A DNA stretch of 64,000 nt, taken from Hadesarchaea archaeon. GTDB taxonomy: Archaea > Hadarchaeota > Hadarchaeia > Hadarchaeales > Hadarchaeaceae. Location of the stretch: contig JAPDJH010000002.1 of NCBI GenBank assembly GCA_029259175.1, positions 18,733 to 82,732 on the forward strand, written 5' to 3'. Below are positions 1 to 57,329 of the stretch, piece by piece. Below the pieces are notes generated by a model. The model saw only the letters and a list, made by a program, of their open reading frames with translations. It was not told the DNA's origin and made no database searches. The translations under genes and the position numbers were made by a program. Every line of letters begins with the position of its first letter. Position 1 is the stretch's first letter.

Positions 1-2355
1 TATCATGGTGTCATCAATGTTGTTCACTTCGATCCACGACCGTTCGACCCCGAACTGAAGTTCGACAGCACTCAAGTCATTGTCCGTGATGTTCTCCTTC
101 ACGACGTTCAAGTACTTGTAAACGACGCCTTCGGTGATTGCCGGCACTTGACTTGGCACTTCAATTAGCTCCTGCACTTTTATACCTAAGCTGGTTATTT
201 CTCTAGCAGCTTTGAGTACAATTTTATTTATCGTCATGTTCTCAAACTCTATGTTCTCTTGGGCCCCCTCCGCCACGGCAGCGATTTCTATCAAAGGTGA
301 CTCCGCCGCCACAGCATTTGGTGATACAAAAAGGTTAACGCTCAGCACATAGCTGCATGTGCGCTCGCTCTCACCGACAACCCCTTTAACAGTTATTGTA
401 TAGTCACCAACGGGCACGTTCTCACCAACGCTTATCGTCATCGCCGAGTTAAAGGGAACTCTCCCCTCATCTGATTCAAAGCTTACCCAAACGCCCGAGG
501 GCAAACCACTCGCGGTCAGGCGCACGAGGTTATCAAAACCTCCGCTTGCCGTGAGGGTGACCATCGCGGTCGTTGAACCCCCTTGGTGTATGGTAGCCCT
601 CGACGGCTCTATCGAGATGCTGAAGTCCGGGATTGGCTTGGCGCCGGTGATGCTAAGCAAGTAGGTGGCAGTTCTTACTTTCCCATCACCTCCGGTGCCA
701 GTAACTGTTATTGTGTACTCGCCGCTGGGCACGTTCTCGCCAACGCTTATCGTCATCGTTGAGTTGAAGCTAGGTACGCCTGCTGCCTGCGATAAATAGA
801 CGGTAACTCCCGAAGGCTGACCGCTTACACTCAGATTCACAACGTACCCATAACCCCCGGTACCACTTACCGCAACGGAAGCGGTGCTAGAACCTCCAGC
901 TGGAATCGAACCGCTTAGCGGACGAACTGAAACAGTGAAATCCGGGGACGGCTGCGGTGACGGCTGTTCCTTTTCCGCGACATCCGGTCCGCTGTAGCTT
1001 CCGCTCCCCGGTAGCCTCGCGGTATAAACGCCATCACTGGCCTCAAAGTAATAGGTGTGGTTGTCCCCAACATCCGCGGAGGTGGGCGTCCACGAGTAAC
1101 GGTACACGGCGCCACCCGCATAGGTTCCGCTCACGTAGCTCATGCTCTTGGCCGAGCCGTCGATGTAGACCTTGACATAAGACGGTGCATCGCCGTCCGC
1201 ATCGGTGTAAATCACTTCGTAGGTGAAGGTAGCACCGGCTTGACCTGAGGTTGGGGATAGGCCCCTCGAGCTCAGGGTTGGCGGAGTATTTCCGAATAGG
1301 TAAACTTTGGAGTCCCAGCTTCCGGCGGCGATGGTGTCTCCGTTAGATGAAACTGAAACTGAGTAAACCTGACCGCCAGTTGGGTAGCTCCAGAGAAAGG
1401 TGCCGGAGGTGCGGCTGAATAGGTAGACCCTTCCATCTTTACTTCCCGCTGCCACGATAGAACCATTTTCAGAGATATCAACCGACCAAACACCGCCGCC
1501 GGTCGCATGACTCCAGAGCGGAGCATTATCAGAGCGCGAGAAGAGGTAGACCTTGTGGTCGTCGCTCCCAGCTGCTATGTACAAGCCGTCGGAGGAGATC
1601 GTGATGGACTCAACGTAACCTCCGGTCGCGTAACTCCAGAGGGGGGTGCTGGAGTCGCGGGAGAAGAGGTAGATTTTGCCACCAGCGTTGCCAGCAGCCA
1701 CGTCCGAGCCGTCCCCCGAAATGGCAACCGATGAAACCGTGTTGCCGGTCGCGTAACTCCAGAGGGGGGTGCTACTCTCCCAGCTGAATAGGTAGACCTT
1801 GCCGTCGTCGCTACCCGCAGCTATGTACGAGCCGTCTTCGGAAATCGCGACCGATAAAACCTTGCCGCCCGTTTTGTAGCTCCAGAGGGGGGTGCTGGAG
1901 TCGCGGGAGAAGAGGTAGATGTTCTCGTCCCAGCTTCCTGCAACTATGTACGAGCCGTCTTCAGAAATCGCGACCGACTCCACCCAGCCCTGGGTTTGGT
2001 AGCTCCAGAGGAGGGTGCCGTTGTTGTCAAAGAGGTGAACTTTGTAGTCGTCCGCGCCCCCGGTGACGACGTACGAGCCATTTTCCGAAACGGCAACCGA
2101 CAGGATCATGCTATCCGTCGCGTAGGACCAGAGCGGAGCATTATCAGAGCGCGAGAAGAGGTAGACCTTGTGGTCGTCGCTCCCAGCTGCTATATATGAC
2201 CCATCTGGGGAGACGGAGACCGATTCAATCCAACCTCCGGCCGTGAAACTCCAGAGGGGATGCTTCTCGAACCCGGGTGAAGACGCCGAAACGACCCAAC
2301 AACCCACCGCACTAAACAACAAGATCAAGGCACAGGCGATTAAAAAAATGACCAT
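1..2355 (-). CDS. Secreted/anchored cell-surface protein, C-terminus off-window: N-terminal hydrophobic helix, about 8 beta-propeller blade repeats, tandem Ig-like domains, PGF-pre-PGF-like domain
   Basis: Absent from the ORF track because it runs off the window. Hand translation from ATG at 2355 gives MVIFLIACALILLFSAVGCWVVSAS. Blades follow of the form PLWSYxTGGxVxSVxISxDGSYIAAGSxDxKVYLFS. Then come two units PDFxxS..GGSxTAxV...SGxPSGV...TISVGENVPxGxYTITV, then ...VYKYLNVVKENITDNDLSAVELQFGVERSWIEVNNIDD. I saw no stop in that frame down to position 1. Confidence 0.8.
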   Translation of the reverse strand, partial: MVIFLIACALILLFSAVGCWVVSASSPGFEKHPLWSFTAGGWIESVSVSPDGSYIAAGSDDHKVYLFSRSDNAPLWSYATDSMILSVAVSENGSYVVTGGADDYKVHLFDNNGTLLWSYQTQGWVESVAISEDGSYIVAGSWDENIYLFSRDSSTPLWSYKTGGKVLSVAISEDGSYIAAGSDDGKVYLFSWESSTPLWSYATGNTVSSVAISGDGSDVAAGNAGGKIYLFSRDSSTPLWSYATGGYVESITISSDGLYIAAGSDDHKVYLFSRSDNAPLWSHATGGGVWSVDISENGSIVAAGSKDGRVYLFSRTSGTFLWSYPTGGQVYSVSVSSNGDTIAAGSWDSKVYLFGNTPPTLSSRGLSPTSGQAGATFTYEVIYTDADGDAPSYVKVYIDGSAKSMSYVSGTYAGGAVYRYSWTPTSADVGDNHTYYFEASDGVYTARLPGSGSYSGPDVAEKEQPSPQPSPDFTVSVRPLSGSIPAGGSSTASVAVSGTGGYGYVVNLSVSGQPSGVTVYLSQAAGVPSFNSTMTISVGENVPSGEYTITVTGTGGDGKVRTATYLLSITGAKPIPDFSISIEPSRATIHQGGSTTAMVTLTASGGFDNLVRLTASGLPSGVWVSFESDEGRVPFNSAMTISVGENVPVGDYTITVKGVVGESERTCSYVLSVNLFVSPNAVAAESPLIEIAAVAEGAQENIEFENMTINKIVLKAAREITSLGIKVQELIEVPSQVPAITEGVVYKYLNVVKENITDNDLSAVELQFGVERSWIEVNNIDDTMI

Positions 2356-2599
2356 GCATCTAGACACTTTGAACCTCTCGCAAGCTCCGACCATCGTTAT
2401 CGTAACCACGATCCCACCGTTGTTGTTTCAACACCCACATCCTAAAGTTTTTCCTGTACGTATTTAGCTCTTTGTCCCAGCCGATGTGAGCAACCGGGTG
2501 TGGGACAAAATTTGCTTCACCCAGCCAGAATAAATTATGCCAGACCACCGTGCACAGATTAGCCGTGTCTATCCGATCCATTCTCCGCTGCGCCACGCG

Positions 2600-3402
2600 T
2601 TACCCGAACCTGCGCTCGGTCCCCGCATGGTCGCATTGCTCTTCGGAATCAAGTAGAAGAGTAATTCCCCGAATTTCTGTTCCAGATCCTAGACGCATGC
2701 CTGCGTGCTGTACAGGCGGTCGAGGCGCATGCTCTCGATCTCTATTCCGAGCTCGGACGAGCTCAACCGCCTTCCGGAACGCCTCCTCTTCGCTCTCGAA
2801 TCCCGTCCCGTAGCCCACGTACATGCGCGTGTCCAGATCCAAGATGGTGAAGGTGAACACGAACCGTCTGCGCGTGCCACGCTTTCCCCGAACGCGCTGG
2901 ATGAAGGTCGCGTAGTGCTCCTTCACCGACAGCGAGTATCCGGTACCGTCTCCGGCGCAGTGGGCACGTTTGACCCCTTTGCGCTCCAGCATCAGCGCGT
3001 GCATGTTGTACAGAACCAGGCGGACCTCTTGGTCCGAGTACAGGCGCTCCACGCTTTTGTAGCTCACCTGGATGCCTGAGAGGGCGCTGAAGAGGTGAGC
3101 ATGAGGGACATCTCGCGGTTGCTTCGTCCAATCAGGTGCTTCAGGAGGAGCAGGGTCACGCGCTACTCGACACTCAAGGCGCGTTTCTGCTCACGCCCAT
3201 TTTTGGACGGATGCTTGAGCACGGCGGCGATTTCCGCGATGAGCGGCCGGAACTCGGCCAGAGCCATCTGGACGCGCTTGGCCAAGCGCTGTTCGTAGGT
3301 TCTCCAGTCCCGCATCCGCTCGGGCGCGAGTTGTTTGTACTCCTCAACGATTTCATCGAGAAGCCTGACGGTTTCCCTGACATCTGTGGTGGTCAGCACC
3401 AT
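2600..3402 (-). pseudogene. DDE-type transposase, disrupted into at least two ORF fragments (3163-3402 and 2600-3067)
   Basis: The N-terminal fragment contains RDWRTYEQRLAKR. The second fragment contains CAGDGTGYSLSVKEHY (DDE-like D-G-T-G) and has a junk-like R/P/G-rich tail. The fragments are not in one frame. Confidence 0.5.
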
Positions 3403-3453
3403 AAGGGCCTTGAAAGGTATATAAGGTTTTCCATGGATATCCCTAATGGGAGA

Positions 3454-3648
3454 ATGGTTCTGAAACGTCGCTTGCTCGGTGGAAGTCGGGGGAGAAAGAT
3501 AGAGATCCTGGAGGGGCGCATCGTTCTGACCGACGAGGTCGAAGTGTTCTTTGAAAAGCGAGTGACCCCGGTGGGGAACAGCGCGAAAGTCGATGCCCCG
3601 CGCCGGTACATTGGCAGGAGAGCCTACGTGATCATCCTGAAAGAGTAA
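3454..3648 (+). CDS. DUF2080-like transposon-associated small protein
   Basis: MVLKRRLL...EKRVTPVGNSAKVDAPRRYIGRRAYVIILKE matches the remembered DUF2080 pattern V.P.GNSa.V..P..wIGk.v.V. It is divergent from the transposase and inside the IR pair. The upstream part of track ORF 3136-3648 is antisense to the transposase and was ignored. Confidence 0.5.
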   Translation: MVLKRRLLGGSRGRKIEILEGRIVLTDEVEVFFEKRVTPVGNSAKVDAPRRYIGRRAYVIILKE

Positions 3649-3751
3649 TCATAGGATTTTGTCCCACACCTCCGTCTCCCCTAAAACTTTTGACACACGT
3701 TTTTAACCATAACTTGAAAAATAAATACACAAGGAAGAATGGAGGGAGAAT

Positions 3752-7034: not shown

Positions 7035-7200
7035 CTACGTGGCCACACATGTCCATTGAAAAGGGGAAGCTAAAACAAATGATTGTGTGATATCGTCGAT
7101 GGTTCTCGCTCATGAGTTTCGTTTGGGACTTCGTGAAGCTGTAAATGAGATCCAACCCACAAGCATTCAGAAATCAGAGGTCATCGTCCACCAGCCTCAA
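7035..7200 (-). pseudogene. Decayed 3' fragment of a paralog of gene 9848-10387
   Basis: About 165 nt aligns by eye with 9848-10015 (roughly three quarters identical). For example, gatgagatccaa(c/t)cca...agcattcagaaa(t/c)cagagg is shared. The fragment carries a 1-nt deletion, 12-nt and 3-nt deletions, and a TGG>TGA change. Confidence 0.65.
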
Positions 7201-7675: not shown

Positions 7676-9225
7676 CTATCCATATCGCTCGGGCAGGGAT
7701 CTAAACTCCAGTATATTGCGGGAATGTCAGCCACTTGGGCCCCCTTGGCCAAGTATGAAAATGTCATTAATGTGTGAGAAAAACTCGGTCCCCGCACCTT
7801 TACTCGATATGGTTTGTCAGTTTCGTTGCCCACCATGTAAAAGCATGCCTCTCCCCTTGCAGCCTCGAGGCAAAAACGGGCGTCTCTTTTTGGGATCTTG
7901 CGCGGAAGCTGTTTTCTCGTTTCTCCCTTGGGTATTTTTTCCAACAATTGTTTAATGATCGAAATGCTTTCAGCGATCTCCCCTCTTCTGCACAAAACTC
8001 TGGCGTAGGAGTCCCCTTTCGTTTGTGTCACAATTTCAAAATCGACTTCCGGATATGCCTCGTAGGGTTCATCTTTTCTTATATCGGACTTTACTCCGCT
8101 TGCTCTCAGGTTGGGACCCGTAGTGCCCAGCTCTACGGCTTTTTTGGCGTCGAGTACACCCACACCTTCCGTTCTTTTGATGACCGTGGCATTTTTGAAA
8201 AACAAATCATCATAAAAAACCAGTTTCTTTTGCAAATGGTTGAGCACTCTCGAAATTTTTTCTTCAAATCCTTCAGGGAAATCCCTTCTCACACCCCCAG
8301 GAACAAAATGGCATGGATAAATTCTTCCTCCGGATGCGATCTCGATCAAACGGATAATTTTTTCCCTGTCCCCCCAAGCGATTCTATTCGCGCTCTCAAA
8401 ACCCAAAGCAAACGACATCATCCCTATCCAAGTTATGTGGCTCAGGATTCTTCCGAGCTCCGTCATGATGGTCCGTATGAACTTCGCCCTTTCAGGTGCT
8501 TCGACTCCCGCAATCTTTTCAGCCACGTTAGCATATCCCAGTTCGTAGGAGTAGGGCTCTAGAACACATATCCTGTCAACAAGCATGGCATTTTGTTCAT
8601 GGGTTCTGTATTCCATTAGCTTCTCTATTCCCCGATGGAGGTATCCAGGGTATAGCATCAGCCCGGTCACTTCTTCGCCCGCGCAGTCGATCAAAGCCCG
8701 AAAATGGCCCGAAGCTGGGTGTTGGGGACCAAAAGGCAAGAGAAAGCAGCCTCCCTCTTTTTGTTCGCTGCTGCTTTCATCATAATATTCTCTCTTCACG
8801 TATTCGCGCGTGTCGAAATCCTTTCTCAGCGGGGGAATTTCTTTCCAATCTTCGAGAAAAAGGGGAGAGGGATCCGGATGCTCTTCAAAATTTACTCCAA
8901 ACAGTTCACATATTTCTCTTTCGTGTATCTGTGCTCCCTCCCATATATTAGAGACCGACTCTATCGATGGCGATTCTCTTGGAAGCCTAATCTTGACAAC
9001 CTTCCTACATTTTTTTGCGTGCGACCAGAGGTGATAAAGTATTTCAAACTCTCTTTCATCGGGATAATCCACGCAAGTAACATCTGAAAGATGATCAAAC
9101 CCAGCATCCTTGAGCTGAGATAAAACTTTGCGGAGCTCTTCTTTTTTTACTGAGATGGTTGCGTTTTCTAGGAGCGCTCGAGGCGTCGATCCCTGGAACC
9201 CGGGCTTCAATTCTTCGCTGTTCAT
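7672..9225 (-). CDS. Fused NuoC-NuoD / group-4 [NiFe]-hydrogenase large-subunit-like protein with only half of the Ni-Fe Cys ligands
   Basis: The NuoC part has DHLSDVTCVDYP...HEREICELFG. The NuoD part has PFGPQHPASGHFR and GYLHRGIEK. RICVLEPYS replaces RICGICS, and C-terminal DPCPSDMDR replaces DPCxxCxxR. Confidence 0.85.
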   Translation of the reverse strand: MNSEELKPGFQGSTPRALLENATISVKKEELRKVLSQLKDAGFDHLSDVTCVDYPDEREFEILYHLWSHAKKCRKVVKIRLPRESPSIESVSNIWEGAQIHEREICELFGVNFEEHPDPSPLFLEDWKEIPPLRKDFDTREYVKREYYDESSSEQKEGGCFLLPFGPQHPASGHFRALIDCAGEEVTGLMLYPGYLHRGIEKLMEYRTHEQNAMLVDRICVLEPYSYELGYANVAEKIAGVEAPERAKFIRTIMTELGRILSHITWIGMMSFALGFESANRIAWGDREKIIRLIEIASGGRIYPCHFVPGGVRRDFPEGFEEKISRVLNHLQKKLVFYDDLFFKNATVIKRTEGVGVLDAKKAVELGTTGPNLRASGVKSDIRKDEPYEAYPEVDFEIVTQTKGDSYARVLCRRGEIAESISIIKQLLEKIPKGETRKQLPRKIPKRDARFCLEAARGEACFYMVGNETDKPYRVKVRGPSFSHTLMTFSYLAKGAQVADIPAIYWSLDPCPSDMDR

Positions 9226-9657
9226 CTAGTGTCCCTCGAATCCATTTTCTATTTTCTTCATGAGCATGACTAGCCCGTGACCTATGTTCTCAGGTTTTGG
9301 TGGGCATCCGGTGACCCAGACGTCCACCGGGATGTATTTATCTATGCGCTTGATTGTGGAATAAGAGTCCCAGTACATTCCTCCAGTCATGGGGCAACTC
9401 CCAAGGGCGAGAACATATTTGGGAGACGGCATTTGTTCGTAAATTCTCTTTATACGCGGAAGGGCTTTTTTTGTCACGTAACCAGCTATGATGAGCACGT
9501 CTGCATGCCGGGGGCTCCCCTTGGCCAATATCCCGAAGCGTTCCATGTCGTAACCTGATCCAACCCAAGGAAGCAGTTCTATGAATCCGCAAGCGGTGAA
9601 GTAATTGATAACCCAAAGCGAGCGAGCGCGCGTTTTGTGTTTTATACCCACGGGCAC
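9226..9657 (-). CDS. NuoB / hydrogenase small-subunit-like protein
   Basis: Has TACGFIEL (a single Cys where NuoB has CC), LGSCPMTGG and VTGCPPKPE. GAGGAGG precedes alternative GTG starts at 9657 and 9651. Confidence 0.85.
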   Translation of the reverse strand: MPVGIKHKTRARSLWVINYFTACGFIELLPWVGSGYDMERFGILAKGSPRHADVLIIAGYVTKKALPRIKRIYEQMPSPKYVLALGSCPMTGGMYWDSYSTIKRIDKYIPVDVWVTGCPPKPENIGHGLVMLMKKIENGFEGH

Positions 9658-9847
9658 GCCTCCTCAGTTTTTCATATTATGGTGGGTGAGGGTTTATAAA
9701 GGCTGGGAGCAAAAATCGAGGGTACAAATTCTGATTTTGCCTGCCCACGAGTTCCAGCACGCGCTTATCCTCTAGTTTGAGTTTCACCACTTGTGAACTT
9801 TCTCGTGCCGCCTGAGGAAGCCGAGAACAAAATTGTTATCTCCATCC

Positions 9848-10387
9848 TTACGCTGGCCACACGTGTCCGTGGCAGTGATCGATTGGAAAGGGGAAGCTGA
9901 AAACGATGATCGTGTTGATATTATCAATAGTCCCCGCCCACGAGAGTTCCCTTTCGGACTTGGTGAAGTCGTAGATGAGATCCAATCCATGAGCATTCAG
10001 AAACCAGAGGAGATCGTATGAGTTTTCCGCATATTCCTTGCCGTGAACATCGCATCTCAAAGTCGTCGTCTTGTTTTCCTCATCGAACTCAACGCTGAAG
10101 TTATCGGCAACCACATTGTATTTCTTGTTAAATTGCTCAATTTGGGCGGATTGGAAGCCACTTTGGTTTTCCATGATTTGGGAGAATTGATTTTCATCCC
10201 AGAAGAGAGTTTCCTGATAATGCAGAACCGGTCCATCCGCGACTATCTCGATGTATCTCTCTACGGCGTTTTCTCCCTGCCAAAGTGGGACTGGCTTTCG
10301 TTGGGCAACCCACCAAGCAGAAACACTGATGAGAACAACGCAGATCACTGCAACGATGATAATTTTTCCAGCCATTTTCACTTTCAC
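9848..10387 (-). CDS. Hypothetical protein with N-terminal transmembrane anchor and C-terminal HCHGH motif
   Basis: N-terminus MKVKMAGKIIIVAVICVVLISVSAWWV, C-terminus ...FSFPFPIDHCHGHVWPA. I recognise no family. Confidence 0.6.
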   Translation of the reverse strand: MKVKMAGKIIIVAVICVVLISVSAWWVAQRKPVPLWQGENAVERYIEIVADGPVLHYQETLFWDENQFSQIMENQSGFQSAQIEQFNKKYNVVADNFSVEFDEENKTTTLRCDVHGKEYAENSYDLLWFLNAHGLDLIYDFTKSERELSWAGTIDNINTIIVFSFPFPIDHCHGHVWPA

Positions 10388-10851
10388 ACCTTCCCTTCCA
10401 GCCAGCCAATTCTGACATTGTCCTTCTGGTCAAACTTTGGAACGTATGGTTTGATGTCCAAAAGAGGAGTACCATCAAGCATATCAACGCCTTTCACCTT
10501 GAGGATATTTCCTTCACGCTTTAGTAGCTCCACAATCGTGAGCCCTATTGGGTTTGGCCTGTTAGGGGATCTCGTGGCGAAAACCCCATGAAGAGCATCG
10601 TCTAGGTAAGGTTTTACCAAAAGTCCCAGCGAATCCAAGCGGTGTTCTTTTTTCACAGAGTGCTTCACCGGTTTATGGAACTCGTACAGGATTATGAGGT
10701 GAGAAAAGCCTTCTATGTCTTTCAGCCCCTCCTCATATTCCTTGAAAACCTCGATCTCCCCAATTTCCTCTGACACGTAGGCTTGATGGGGTGCCTCTCC
10801 GTCCTTTTTGTATGGCGTGTGGATTATTCCTATTGGCTTTAGTTTTATCAT
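10384..10851 (-). CDS. trmO: tRNA methyltransferase TrmO (YaeB/UPF0066 family)
   Basis: Has MIKLKPIGIIHTPY, ATRSPNRPNPIG and DGTPLLDIKPY. The ATG at 10851 overlaps the upstream stop (ATGA). Confidence 0.85.
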   Translation of the reverse strand: MIKLKPIGIIHTPYKKDGEAPHQAYVSEEIGEIEVFKEYEEGLKDIEGFSHLIILYEFHKPVKHSVKKEHRLDSLGLLVKPYLDDALHGVFATRSPNRPNPIGLTIVELLKREGNILKVKGVDMLDGTPLLDIKPYVPKFDQKDNVRIGWLEGKV

Positions 10852-11495
10852 TCTACCACAAGCCCTGCCCCACACCTCACGTATTGTTTCGGGAATGCGC
10901 GCGCCAACTCCTTTTTGTATACAGTGCAGTGGCAGGGAGAAATCAACCTAAGGCCCTTTAGAGCGTCGAAATCGCTGAACCCGTGAAAGCCTCCAACGAT
11001 ACCGTATATCTTGCCAATTTTTGATGCTGCGTTTAGGATGCTGCGCACTCCCGGATGAGAGCAGCCCGTGATCACAAACGCGCCTCTTTTGTCCAGACAA
11101 ATCAACGACTGCTCTTTAGTGTATGCGCCCAACTCACCTGTCGTGAATATCTCCTTGCGTATCTGTGTTGGCCCACGGACTTCAACCAACCTCGTTTTTG
11201 CTGGGATCTCGTTTTTTAACCACCTAGAAAACGATGCCAAGGCGTACACGGTAAGATTTGGGTTCACCTCAAGTAGCTCCGATAGCCCACCGGTGTGATC
11301 CCCATGCCCGTGCGACAATACGACAGATTTTATGTTGCTCGGATCTATGCCCAATTTTTCCATGTTATGCAATAAGGCCACACCATCGCCACCCGTGTCG
11401 AACAAGGTGTCGTTGTCGATTAAACAGGAGAAACCCCAGCCCGCTATTAGTCCTTTCTTTAACACTTCATTGTCATAAACCACTGTTATTTTCAT
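10848..11495 (-). CDS. MBL-fold metallo-hydrolase (paralog of 3752-4642)
   Basis: Has SHGHGDHTGG and TGCSHPG. I take the start at MKITVVYDN. Confidence 0.8.
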   Translation of the reverse strand: MKITVVYDNEVLKKGLIAGWGFSCLIDNDTLFDTGGDGVALLHNMEKLGIDPSNIKSVVLSHGHGDHTGGLSELLEVNPNLTVYALASFSRWLKNEIPAKTRLVEVRGPTQIRKEIFTTGELGAYTKEQSLICLDKRGAFVITGCSHPGVRSILNAASKIGKIYGIVGGFHGFSDFDALKGLRLISPCHCTVYKKELARAFPKQYVRCGAGLVVE

Positions 11496-27131: not shown

Positions 27132-27992
27132 TCAAGGTTTTCTCGCAATGATTCCGGCGGCGACTTGTTTTTTCGTTTCAAATCCGGCTTCTTTTAGTCG
27201 TTTGTTTACTCCGGCAACCAATTTTTTCCTTCTCCATTTTCCGGGATCGCCCACATAGTGATAGAGCCATCCGCCGGGTTTGAGCACTCGGAAGAGTTCG
27301 TCGTAGAACGACTTGGAATAGAGCTCGCCGGCAAGGGCGAAACGCGGGGGGTCGTGCAGGATTCGGTGGAAGTGGTTTTTGGGCAGCTCTGGCACTAGCG
27401 TTGCTGCGTTTTCGAGCCACAGGTGGATGTGAGGGGCGGCAAGTTCGTGTGACCAGGGATTCACCTCAGCCATCTCGAGCACGTGTGGATCGATCTCCAC
27501 GGTGGTCACCTCGGCTCCCTGCCGGTACGCGATTATGGATGTGTAGCCTAGCCCGGTTCCTATGTCTAGGATCCGAGCCCCGTCGAATACGCGAAGTGCA
27601 CGGACCTTTTCCAGAGCGTCCCGCCAAGGCGTTATGTTTTCGATTCGGTGCATGTGGATGCCCGAGACTTCTAGGGTGGGTGCCCGATCCGGTCCCACAG
27701 CGAGCAGGCGATAGTAGCGCCCATTCGCGTAAAAAGCCACTTTGAACACGTTTCCTTCTTTTACCATGCACACATCGCCGGTTTTCATCTTGTCGAGGAT
27801 CTCTAGTTCCACTATCGAACCATCTGGGAACACAACACCACTTTCGTTCAGTTTCACTTCGCTTTTGGTCAGCCCCAGATCGAGGCTGATTTTGACGTTT
27901 GCTTTCTTCTCTCCCAGTGCTCGCTTGAGGACGTCGACCGTTTCGCGCACGAGCAATATGGCGGCTTTCGGGCGGAATGTGTAGCGCTTCAT
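27132..27992 (-). CDS. SAM-dependent methyltransferase with N-terminal extra domain
   Basis: Has ILDIGTGLGY and HDPPRF. The ATG at 27992 overlaps the upstream stop (ATGA). Confidence 0.7.
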   Translation of the reverse strand: MKRYTFRPKAAILLVRETVDVLKRALGEKKANVKISLDLGLTKSEVKLNESGVVFPDGSIVELEILDKMKTGDVCMVKEGNVFKVAFYANGRYYRLLAVGPDRAPTLEVSGIHMHRIENITPWRDALEKVRALRVFDGARILDIGTGLGYTSIIAYRQGAEVTTVEIDPHVLEMAEVNPWSHELAAPHIHLWLENAATLVPELPKNHFHRILHDPPRFALAGELYSKSFYDELFRVLKPGGWLYHYVGDPGKWRRKKLVAGVNKRLKEAGFETKKQVAAGIIARKP

Positions 27993-29134
27993 GCTGTCCC
28001 CACGATTTGGAGTGCCAGTTCTATGGCGCGAGTCGGAGAGGGCACGATCACAGCCCCGCACTCTGCTAGCTTTTTTTCTTGGCTGGTGCGAGAGGGGGTG
28101 TCGCCGTCGGTGCCCAGAACGGTTCCGATAACGCTCAGATATCCACCTGTGTCTTCTACGGTTTGCTTGGCCTTTCTGATGGCTTCTCCTATTATTGTTG
28201 CGGGGTTTGGGTGTCCTCCTCGCCCAAGTTCGAGGTCGAATACGATGACGGCCAATCCCAGGTCGCTCGATTCTTTTATCATTCTGGATGCCAATGGGGC
28301 CGGATCCATCAGCAACTCCTGTTCGCCCGTGAATTCGGCGGCGCTCATGTCGACGAGCGCGTGCCCCCGACTGGAGTGAGGATCCGCCAACCGGTTGCGT
28401 GGTTTCAACGGCACATTGGAGTAGGGCGTTTTTCCACGTTTTTCGAGCACGACTTGAGCTTCAGCACAGAGAAAGCGTCCCGTGTACAGCCCGCGGATGT
28501 GTCGCTGACCATAAGCGAGTTCTGCAGATTCGCGCTCTACGATTTTTTTCGCAGCCGTTTCATTGGGAAGTTGGTGGTTTAGTGCGGAAGCCATCTTTCC
28601 GGCCGTTTCGAGTAGGGTTTGAGAGATTCGCCTTGAGGGGAGGTGATCCGGCATACAAAAGAAGCAAGGTTTATCTAATGTGTTCACGGCTTCCATGATC
28701 TTTCGCTCCACCGTTGTGGCCGGAGTGAGGCCCACCACCCCTATGACCTCGACTTTAGGATCCTCGTTTAGAAATCGAAGCGCTTGGATGGTGCTGCTCC
28801 CCGCAATCCTTTGAGATAGATCGCGGGCCCCCACATAGAGAACATGTCTGATCCCCACCGGGGCCAGCAGAACAGACAAGCCTCTCAGCCCGGAAGTGGT
28901 GGTGCCGACGAGCCCGACCGGACCGGGTGGAAGGGCATTCCAGCTCCCGAACCGGAGATCTCCAACTATGGAGAAGGAGCACCTGGGCCCCAGAAGCAGT
29001 ACTTCGCGTTCACCCGCAAGCCGCTTTATCTCGCTTTCCTCTTCGATGGTTAAATCGCAGCGCAGAACCACGTGTTTTTTCGAGTTGATGGCCTCGACCG
29101 CTTGCGTGCGGCTGTGTGCTTCCGCAACTTCCAT
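27989..29134 (-). CDS. FdrA-like (succinyl-CoA-synthetase-alpha-like) protein, N-terminally short
   Basis: Has LLLGPRCSF, VGLVGTTTSG and GARDLS. The track start TTG 29206 lies inside the repeat element, so ATG 29134 is preferred. Confidence 0.65.
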   Translation of the reverse strand: MEVAEAHSRTQAVEAINSKKHVVLRCDLTIEEESEIKRLAGEREVLLLGPRCSFSIVGDLRFGSWNALPPGPVGLVGTTTSGLRGLSVLLAPVGIRHVLYVGARDLSQRIAGSSTIQALRFLNEDPKVEVIGVVGLTPATTVERKIMEAVNTLDKPCFFCMPDHLPSRRISQTLLETAGKMASALNHQLPNETAAKKIVERESAELAYGQRHIRGLYTGRFLCAEAQVVLEKRGKTPYSNVPLKPRNRLADPHSSRGHALVDMSAAEFTGEQELLMDPAPLASRMIKESSDLGLAVIVFDLELGRGGHPNPATIIGEAIRKAKQTVEDTGGYLSVIGTVLGTDGDTPSRTSQEKKLAECGAVIVPSPTRAIELALQIVGTA

Positions 29135-29177
29135 CGGATAATTGTCGGTGCGGTGGCTTTTTTTGATTTTAGGAAGG

Positions 29178-29463
29178 GGATTCTCTTCGAAACCCTTGAC
29201 TCGCAAATACTTTCGCCGGCCTCTCCCCGAAACGAGCTTAAACGGGAAGGCGGAACCGCTTTACGGAATGCCCGGGTCAGTGACTCCAGAGAGCGCTTCC
29301 CGCACCGTCCGTGGCGCTCTGCGGGAAGCAGGTCACGCGCGGATCAACAAGCCCGGAAAAGAGGTTCCCGGAGCAGCGCTCCGGGAACGGGGCCGTGCGG
29401 GTTCCGGCCCTGAAGGCGGCCTAGAGCCGCCAACTTCGGAGGTCAAGGCTTCCGAGGAGAACC
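29178..29463 (+). repeat. GC-rich ~286-bp repeat element, copy 1 (MITE-like or structured RNA)
   Basis: Aligns end to end with 40191-40478, including a 70-nt perfectly identical block (29361-29430 = 40376-40445). Termini GGATTCTCTTCG / CGAGGAGAACC are complementary. It is flanked by TAGGAAGG on both sides (29170-29177 and 29464-29471). Confidence 0.75.
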
Positions 29464-29501
29464 TAGGAAGGGTTTTAGAGTTGCAACGCTAGAAGGAATG
29501 G

Positions 29502-40104: not shown

Positions 40105-40190
40105 ATCAACCCCGTTAATAGACGAATCTCGCTTTAAAAAACTCTCGCCCCAAGTCCCGCGCGCTTCTGAAAATATTTCTAGATCTAGAG

Positions 40191-40478
40191 GGGTTCTCTT
40201 CGAAACTTTGACCCGCAGATACTTTCGCCTACCCCTCTCCCCGAAACGGGCTTAAAGAGAGAGGTGGAACCGCTTTACGGGATGCCCCGGGGCCAGTGAC
40301 TCCAGTGCGCGCTTCTCGCACCGTCCGTGGCGCTCTGCGGGAAGCGGGATTGCGCGGGTCGACAGGCCCGGGGAAGAGGTTCCCGGAGCAGCGCTCCGGG
40401 AACGGGGCCGTGCGGGTTCCGGCCCTGAAGGCGGCCTAGAGCCGCTAACTTCGGAGGTCAGGGCTTCCGAAGAGAACC
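40191..40478 (+). repeat. GC-rich ~288-bp repeat element, copy 2
   Basis: Termini GGGTTCTCTTCG / CGAAGAGAACC(C) are a perfect inverted pair. It is flanked by CTAGAG on both sides (40185-40190 and 40479-40484) and has the same orientation as copy 1. Confidence 0.75.
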
Positions 40479-40510
40479 CTAGAGAGAACACCGGAAATTG
40501 ATGGGGTCAA

Positions 40511-57251: not shown

Positions 57252-57329
57252 GCGGCAGTAGTCTAGCCTGGTCTAGGACACCAGCCTGCCACGCTGGTGG
57301 CGCGGGTTCGAATCCCGCCTGCCGCACCA
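57252..57329 (+). tRNA. tRNA-Gly (anticodon GCC), CCA encoded
   Basis: Hand-folded cloverleaf. The acceptor stem is GCGGCAG/CTGCCGC. The anticodon stem is CCAGC/GCTGG with loop CTGCCAC. The T arm is GCGGG-TTCGAAT-CCCGC. Discriminator A and CCA follow. Confidence 0.9.

Follow-up and report, generated by a model that had tools for sequence, protein, structure and literature searches.

Among archaea, MITEs are known from Sulfolobus (SM1 to SM4), Haloquadratum and Halobacterium, thermophiles included, where they are non-autonomous and IS-dependent, the transposases of resident IS elements presumably mobilising them in trans. The repeat family described here comes from a different host lineage and is unrelated to these elements in sequence, and its mobility is seen in the polymorphism of metagenomic strains and not through the comparison of isolate genomes. 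Prokaryotic MITEs in general are shorter than 500 bp, have terminal inverted repeats (TIRs) and target duplications that fade with age, occur in multiple copies, encode no transposase and depend on an IS in trans, and they are typically AT-rich; archaeal MITEs are also found in the published list (PMC10969869). In a census of bacteria and archaea from 2024, MITEs were present in about 20% of the archaeal genomes, and only 1.6% of all the MITEs found resembled earlier-described ones (PMC11602168).

Here, we analyzed a 64-kb stretch of archaeal DNA (referred to below as the window) and find that a 285- to 287-bp repeat within it is very likely a non-coding, recently mobile MITE family in an uncultivated archaeon of hydrothermal sediment. 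The repeat is shorter than about 500 bp, lacks a conserved ORF, has TIRs and a copy-specific target duplication and is multicopy, and both filled and empty alleles of its insertion sites are present among related strains. The activity of a MITE is thereby displayed at the population level in an uncultivated organism, archaeal MITEs being comparatively little studied. As in other prokaryotic MITEs, the copies are intergenic, the TIRs span about 11 to 23 bp, the 9-bp duplication is sharp when young and decayed when old, and the predicted structure is strong. Close points of reference are QMITE2 of Coxiella, with a length of about 190 bp, TIRs of 23 to 29 bp and direct repeats of 7 to 9 bp, and Chunjie of Geobacter, with a length of 235 bp. 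In contrast to the typical MITE, the family is GC-rich, 10 points above its genome, although AT-richness is typical of MITEs and not a defining trait. It also differs from a plain decaying MITE in that the most conserved parts are internal hairpins and not the subterminal repeats, a pattern that one would not expect from such decay. The Correia elements (NEMIS) of Neisseria insert directly upstream of genes and are either co-transcribed with them or give them a promoter, and copies 2 and 3 of our family are similarly placed. However, Correia elements make a TA duplication, are about 100 to 155 bp long and have promoters, IHF sites and RNase III processing that have been shown experimentally, whereas the present element is known from its sequence and the promoters of archaea differ.

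Structure and copies of the repeat

Two copies of the repeat lie in the window in the same orientation. A preliminary description of this DNA had reported that 29178-29463 matches 40191-40478 over the full length, and this was confirmed by BLASTN with 87.9% identity over 290 columns; the long identical block that it reported is also present but comprises 72 nt (29359-29430 = 40374-40445) and not 70 nt. Copy 1 occupies positions 29179 to 29463 of the plus strand (285 bp, 63.5% GC), and copy 2 occupies positions 40192 to 40478 of the plus strand (287 bp, 65.5% GC), whereas the window has a GC content of 54.2% and the intergenic DNA that serves as the target one of 44%. No further copy was found in the 64-kb window by a repeat scan. 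A third full-length copy (copy 3, L001:9912-10196, 285 bp) was found by a protein search with the translated open frame of copy 1, which led to the 87-amino-acid spurious ORF P0002 and to contigs with L001, and it is 91% identical to copy 1. Since the assembly ERZ25515408 holds copy 3 together with the loci of copies 1 and 2, with identical proteins, copy 3 belongs to the same population as the window. Three full-length copies were thus available for alignment.

The ends of the repeat are complementary, as had been noted before, and form a TIR that is perfect over 11 to 12 bp in copy 2 (GGTTCTCTTCG / CGAAGAGAACC), has one mismatch in copy 3 and has two mismatches in copy 1 (GATTCTCTTCG / CGAGGAGAACC). 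The similarity between the ends runs on imperfectly to about 23 bp, and in copies 1 and 3 about 19 to 20 of the 23 positions of this longer repeat are paired. In copy 1, the 5' TIR (29179 to 29201, plus strand, GATTCTCTTCGAAACCCTTGACT) matches the reverse complement of the 3' TIR (29441 to 29463, minus strand, reverse complement GGTTCTCCTCGGAAGCCTTGACC) at 19 of 23 positions. The ends of the family can be written as GGTTCTCTTCG(R)AA...TTCCGAAGAGAACC, and copy 1 carries a G-to-A change at position 2 relative to the family start GGTTCTC and begins GATTCTC. The ends of the inverted repeats coincide exactly with the boundaries of the insertions as set by the empty sites described below.

A frame of 116 codons (frame +1) is open in copy 1 but is broken in copy 2 by indels of 1 to 2 nt, which shows that the element is non-coding and agrees with the earlier statement that neither copy holds a credible ORF. 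The two ORFs called inside the element, P0001 and P0002, have no Pfam domain and no relatives, and a protein search with the minus-strand frame of the element returned nothing.

Filled and empty alleles at the insertion sites

Empty sites in related strains, which the preliminary description had proposed to look for, were reached through further proteins in the 90%-identity clusters to which the neighboring proteins belong. The site of copy 1 is filled in the window and in L005 and empty in L011, L012 and L014 to L017, which are six contigs, each of another sample. The intergenic region measures 366 nt in the filled allele and 72 nt in the empty one, giving an insertion of 294 nt, that is, the 285 nt of the element plus 9 nt. 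The empty allele reads GATTT-TAGGAAGGG-TTTTAGAG, with TAGGAAAAG instead in three of the six contigs. In the filled allele, the 9-bp word TAGGAAGGG stands on the left of the element at 29170 to 29178 and, in identical form, on its right at 29464 to 29472, while it occurs once in each of the six empty alleles, those of L015 to L017 among them. At the site of copy 3, L027 and L028 (two samples) lack the element, and the sequence there reads CTTTTT CATCCCATC GAGATT with the word again single; the filled allele is CATCCCATC-GGTTCTC...GAGAACC-CATCCCATC and is longer by 294 nt, which again equals 285 + 9. Empty sites with a single 9-bp word show insertion with a 9-bp target-site duplication.

The tabulation of flanks gave three perfect 9-bp pairs, those of copies 1 and 3 and that of a longer relative of about 1.2 kb (TAACTAGCC, discussed below), which are alike within a copy and different between copies, the probability of each such match by chance being about 4e-6. 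The interpretation of such flanks as target-site duplications, put forward in the preliminary description, is thereby upheld, with some changes in detail. The 8-bp word TAGGAAGG that it placed on both sides of copy 1 is indeed there, but the repeat is really 9 bp long, and the element starts at 29179. For copy 2, the word CTAGAG is present on both sides as reported (40185 to 40190 and 40479 to 40484), but the left word is separated from the element by one G while the right one directly abuts it. With this offset of 1 nt, the flanking 9-mers ATCTAGAGG and CTAGAGAGA differ and match poorly, and the pair is best described as the two halves of a decayed or imperfect duplication.

The strains in which the sites are empty are very close to those in which they are filled. 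L011, L012 and L014 are 99.4 to 99.5% identical to the filled strains, L015 to L017 about 98.6% and L027 and L028 about 98%, and the presence or absence of copies 1 and 3 among strains with 97.7 to 99.5% identity overall means that the family has moved recently. Copy 1 is a recent insertion that is polymorphic in the population. All close strains with sequence across the site of copy 2 (L008, L009, L018 and L019), on the other hand, have the element there with 100% identity, and since the duplication of copy 2 is also imperfect, this copy is probably older and apparently fixed. An exact empty site for copy 2 did not emerge, as the close strains are filled and the element-free relative, with 71 to 76% identity, is too diverged for an alignment of the target. 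In about 54 kb sampled from this distant relative (L031 to L034), there is no copy of the element, and the intergenic regions at the positions of copies 1 and 2 are short; for copy 2, it is L032 to L034 whose homologous intergenic region is short and lacks the element.

One could argue that the polymorphism reflects loss and that an ancestral element was excised in some strains by recombination between the 9-bp flanks. Exact excision across short direct repeats can occur, and old copies can persist, as copy 2 shows. However, the 9-bp repeats themselves presuppose an earlier insertion, the distant relative is without the element at the sites of both copy 1 and copy 2, and two clusters of strains (99.5% and 98.6%) lack copy 1 and only the cluster of the window has it, for which a single recent gain is the simplest explanation. 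We therefore find loss highly improbable. The GC-rich, highly structured and intergenic nature of the repeat, with a fold closed by a terminal helix, would also suit paralogous copies of a stationary noncoding RNA gene or a host repeat of the REP/PATE type, the flanking repeats then being coincidental or part of the unit. This explanation has next to no probability, since presence/absence alleles with exact, locus-specific 9-bp duplications are incompatible with a stationary gene and no Rfam family was matched, and since REP/PATE units mobilised by IS200/IS605 make no target duplication, have no TIRs and insert beside a short specific motif; the 9-bp duplications together with the TIRs rule out an IS200/IS605-dependent element of that kind. 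The view of the preliminary description, that this is a non-autonomous mobile element, is instead borne out by the further copies, the empty sites and the copy-specific duplications.

Conserved hairpin cores

Within this mobile MITE family, the differences between the three full-length copies are not spread evenly. Alignment columns 121 to 156 and 186 to 256 are almost invariant, whereas in the remainder, the subterminal repeat included, about 1 in 4 columns is variable. For the 3' portion (columns 186 to 291), the probability of so few variable columns under an even spread is about 0.001, a post hoc value that is based on three copies. The first of the two conserved parts, core A (CGCACCGTCCGTGGCGCTCTGCGGGAAGC, plus strand, 29301 to 29329 in copy 1 with its counterpart at 40317 to 40345 in copy 2), makes up the 3' half and the loop of a GC hairpin of 9 to 11 bp and is identical in three of three full copies. 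In the metagenome X1, no variant at a frequency of 10% or more was seen in core A among all copies, at a depth of up to about 822 compared to 33 to 42 for single-copy sequence. Core B (plus strand, 29359 to 29429 in copy 1 and 40374 to 40444 in copy 2) consists of three consecutive GC-rich hairpins, one with an 11-bp stem and a 3-nt loop and two with 6-bp stems, and only 1 of its 71 columns is variable among the three copies; it also lies within the part that is common to the longer relative. Copies 1 and 3 are both recent insertions and yet are 10% different, and the differences must consequently have arisen in source copies that stayed mobile. It follows that the invariant cores mark either what a mobile lineage must keep or what some other selection keeps. 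It is plausible that the cores act in cis, as subterminal sites for the transposase or a host factor or as the promoter and leader of the partner element, and the invariant hairpins are in this respect a lead on the cis requirements of a putative archaeal transposase.

The possibility that the element is mobile but not passive, and that selection preserves the cores for a function as a structured RNA or as a regulatory module that travels with the element, such as an outward promoter, a structured 5' leader or protein-binding palindromes, draws on the same observations. The variation is non-uniform with both cores almost invariant, core A is without variants among the copies in X1, the GC content of 64% exceeds that of the genome (54%) and of the target (44%), and the genes next to copies 2 and 3 must be expressed through or from the element. 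In addition, both strands fold better than shuffled sequences (z values of -3.2 and -3.7), although this is expected of a sequence that is built from palindromes. Metatranscriptome contigs, sparse and of low depth, are found over the element and run across the 5' junction of copy 1, but once the copy number is allowed for, the element has no greater RNA depth than the neighboring genes. The depth is also similar to that in the DNA library of the same sample, and carry-over of DNA is possible. A search against Rfam 15 at the gathering threshold found only a tRNA-Gly elsewhere in the window, and a permissive scan of copy 1 gave matches at the level of chance (E > 1). Nor did we find covariation among the three copies with RNAalifold (covariation terms of -0.09 and +1.03 kcal/mol), and there was no strand bias in G:U-compatible changes. 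In the consensus fold of the three copies, 14 pairs of the plus strand are preserved by wobble pairing, 10 are broken and 2 are compensated, with 13, 13 and 1, respectively, on the minus strand, meaning that broken pairs outnumber compensated ones on both strands and are about as frequent as those kept by wobble pairing; three sequences have little power in such a comparison. Furthermore, cis requirements for transposition explain the conservation of the cores equally well. On balance, we regard a functional role of the cores beyond transposition as unlikely, and the more specific proposal that the element serves, in a thermophilic archaeon, to carry a structured RNA or a regulatory cassette with a function of its own, the cores and not the TIRs being the selected part, as quite unlikely. 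If it were true, the cores would act either as an RNA, for example a regulatory or guide-like one that is encoded by the transposon and common to the MITE and its 1.2-kb partner, or as a mobile promoter or leader by which downstream genes are rewired.

Neighboring genes, probable partner and distribution

The recent movement of the MITE has consequences for the genes around it. Both copies in the window are in divergent intergenic regions, as first described, and the element inserts into short, AT-rich intergenic promoter regions. Copy 1 is located between an FdrA-like CoA-ligase gene (27989 to 29134, minus strand) and a PCC-domain gene on the plus strand. The neighbors of copy 2 are an amidohydrolase/deaminase gene on the minus strand and EngB on the plus strand, and those of copy 3 are a purine-type phosphoribosyltransferase gene on the minus strand and a Toprim-domain gene on the plus strand. 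The insertion point of copy 1 falls exactly between two TATA-like boxes, of which CTAAAAT would belong to the FdrA-like gene and TTTTAGAG to the PCC-domain gene, and both are still in place. The preliminary description had noticed that the FdrA-like ORF takes its first in-frame start from copy 1, and a TTG at 29206 is in fact in that position. It is, however, a spurious start and an artefact of the insertion and not a new N terminus, since the gene is called from the ATG at 29134, its true start, in the empty-site strains. The FdrA-like protein accordingly has 381 amino acids in the empty alleles and 405 in the filled ones.

The duplication at copy 3 contains the start codon of the phosphoribosyltransferase gene (CAT at L001:9903-9905), and all of the sequence upstream of this gene is therefore element. 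The sole AT-rich patch at that end of copy 3 is AAAGTATTT, which precedes the ATG by about 37 nt on the minus strand; it is conserved in copies 1 and 3, with AAAGTATCT in copy 2, and could be a TATA box for the phosphoribosyltransferase gene. Copy 2 separates a TATA-like box (AAAATATTT, 40171 to 40179) from the start of EngB, and because of this arrangement EngB is probably transcribed through the element. Copies 2 and 3 may thus part a gene from its old promoter, after which the element would either be transcribed as a structured leader or supply an outward promoter. Insertions at a start codon, or between a TATA box and its gene, provide a natural test of how archaeal promoters deal with a structured, GC-rich insert of 285 bp. 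On a more practical level, the family breaks short-read assemblies of this lineage, offers convenient strain markers and seeds spurious gene calls. These are P0001 and P0002 within the element itself, 24 extra N-terminal codons in the FdrA-like gene and 98 extra codons in the phosphoribosyltransferase gene, which is called with 245 instead of 147 amino acids.

As the preliminary description had held, no autonomous partner lies in the window, in which the terminal repeat has no further occurrence. An IS remnant at 2497-3670 was considered for this role and rejected, as its ends are unrelated (GGTGTGGGACAAAAT), in line with what had been said of them, and it has a DUF2080 accessory ORF. A better candidate is a longer relative seen in two metagenomes. 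Contigs of 25.4 kb (25,429 nt, X1) and 55.9 kb (55,930 nt, X3) carry CCTT TAACTAGCC followed directly by GGTTCTCTTCGGAACTC, a junction that is also given as TAACTAGCC followed by GGTTCTCTTCGG and as CCTTTAACTAGCC followed by GGTTCTCTTCGGAACTC. After about 50 to 60 nt of the 5' end of the element, they switch at CCCCGAAAC to an unrelated, more AT-rich sequence (CCTCATAATTGGATAGAACG), which continues for another ~1,050 nt (about 1,053 nt) to the end of the contig. Other contigs lead from CGCGGACCTGAACGGTGCCGCAAACCTCGG into AAGAGGTTCCCGG and the last ~105 nt of the element and then leave it through GAGAACC, followed by TAACTAGCC CATC; this 3' side also reads GAGAACC followed by TAACTAGCCCATC. The chance of finding the same 9-bp word on both outer sides is about 4e-4 with about ten candidate ends per side, and the two junctions can for this reason be assigned to one family member of about 1.15 to 1.2 kb. 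A stop codon is present on its minus strand some 65 nt in from the 5' end. A second occurrence of the terminal repeat was seen neither in the window nor in the 34 fetched loci, and the 30-nt words from the interior and the flanks of the longer relative did not turn up in them either.

Reading 30 nt at each inner edge, we consider this ~1.2-kb relative, which has the form expected of an autonomous parent IS, to be the probable autonomous partner. The MITE would be moved by a transposase that acts in trans and makes 9-bp staggered cuts by DDE-type chemistry, and the enzyme would most likely be encoded by the longer relative; the MITE and this relative have in common the first 50 to 60 nt, the final 105 nt or more and the 9-bp duplication. 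In archaea, 8- to 9-bp duplications and ends that start with GG are found in IS256, ISA1214, ISM1 and the IS903 group of IS5. These families resemble our element in the 9-bp duplication and the GG ends, the presumed partner having about 1.2 kb, and several of them fit in a comparison that is made without a transposase sequence.

The copy count that had been proposed as a check yielded, besides copy 3, element unitigs at 10 to 20 times the single-copy depth in two metagenomes. In X1, the flanks have a unitig depth of 33 to 42, while the shared unitigs of the element reach 480 to 590 in core B and 822 in core A; in X3, the flanks have a depth of 12 to 17 compared to 137 to 241 for the shared element unitigs. 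Contigs in both X1 and X3 break within the element and lead to many distinct flanks. From the unitig depths, there are roughly 10 to 20 copies per genome equivalent, to which other members of the community may contribute.

Outside this population, the family is without detectable relatives in the plasmid, phage, GTDB-representative, JGI metagenome and IMG/VR collections searched. There were no matches to 70-mer and 26-mer patterns in the GTDB representative genomes or to three patterns in IMG/VR, and BLASTN in distant mode gave no match among plasmids and phages. Patterns of 24 and 21 nt gave no matches in JGI metagenome contigs apart from a single one (L010), which was dismissed as a chance match in an unrelated context of high GC content. 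Such a lack of relatives is the usual situation for MITEs. The sequence occurs in sequencing runs from metagenomes of hydrothermal vents and marine sediments, and one JGI sample with the population is from the Guaymas Basin ("Guay17"). The window has an archaeal-type tRNA-Gly, and the related loci encode an archaeal FBP aldolase/phosphatase, NAC and CarS.

Insertion sites and neighbouring genes

The unoccupied target of copy 1 of the MITE (window 29179-29463) varies by strain cluster among the metagenome loci that lack the element at this site, reading TAGGAAAAG in the 99.5% cluster (L011/L012/L014) and TAGGAAGGG in the 98.6% cluster (L015-L017). The filled allele of copy 1 is therefore derived from a TAGGAAGGG-type site, which is its ancestor.

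Copy 2 (window 40192-40478) lies between a TATA-like AAAATATTT (window 40171-40179) and the EngB start codon (40511), and the spacing between these two would be ~36 nt without the element. Because copy 2 splits the TATA-like sequence from the start in this way, the EngB transcript probably carries the entire copy as a structured leader of ~320 nt. In the distant relative (71-76% identity), L032-L034 retain EngB with a divergent intergenic region of 53 nt, and in L031 (JGI 3300033156, 9022-11395) the interval from the nucleoside phosphorylase gene to the amidohydrolase gene lacks EngB.

The third full copy in the population (L001:9912-10196) is flanked by a 9-bp duplication, CATCCCATC, at L001:9903-9911 and 10197-10205. 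The ATG of a phosphoribosyltransferase gene (CAT on the plus strand) is contained within this duplication, and the whole upstream region of the gene has thus been replaced by the MITE. In the L026 assembly, the phosphoribosyltransferase open reading frame (ORF) was called right across copy 3, resulting in 245 aa versus 147 aa.

Gene-calling artefacts

The MITE gives rise to gene-calling artefacts at window 29142-29492 on the plus strand, at window 29206 on the minus strand and at L001:10001-10264. The ORFs called within the element were 74 aa (P0001) and 87 aa (P0002) long, and a TTG at window 29206 on the minus strand lengthens the FdrA-like gene by 24 codons, an extension confined to the filled alleles.

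Divergent members of the family

The MITE family includes older or divergent members, found at contig ends in runs X1, X3 and X5, and these contig ends also revealed a subfamily with the 5' end GGGTCCCCTCGAAAACCCTGACCC. One such copy was assembled within a 15-kb contig; its version of the internal hairpin region that is near-invariant in the full copies, core B, is only ~75% similar (GTGGCCGTGTGAGTTCCGGCCCTAGAAACA...), and the end of this copy reads ...GAGAGCC|TTATCCCAAGCC.

Other repeats and features of the window

An IS remnant of ~1.17 kb (window 2497-3670) has 15-bp terminal inverted repeats (GGTGTGGGACAAAAT ... ATTTTGTCCCACACC) that are unrelated to the MITE termini, and no obvious flanking duplication was seen around it. 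Its plus-strand 170-aa ORF (window 3136-3648) has a DUF2080 "transposase-associated" domain at the C-terminus, and its opposite-strand ORFs are fragmentary and without a family match. A tandem array at window 1294-2259, with a period of 123 nt and at least 6-8 units that are 60-83% identical, probably corresponds to a protein repeat of 41 residues, encoded by a gene extending past the window start. Two direct repeats of ~80% identity (window 7052-7187 and 9879-10017), 2.83 kb apart, probably represent paralogous segments of genes within or close to a hydrogenase/Nuo-like cluster. The sole Rfam match at the gathering threshold in the whole window was a tRNA-Gly(GCC) at 57252-57326, with 68% GC and a D-loop of archaeal type.
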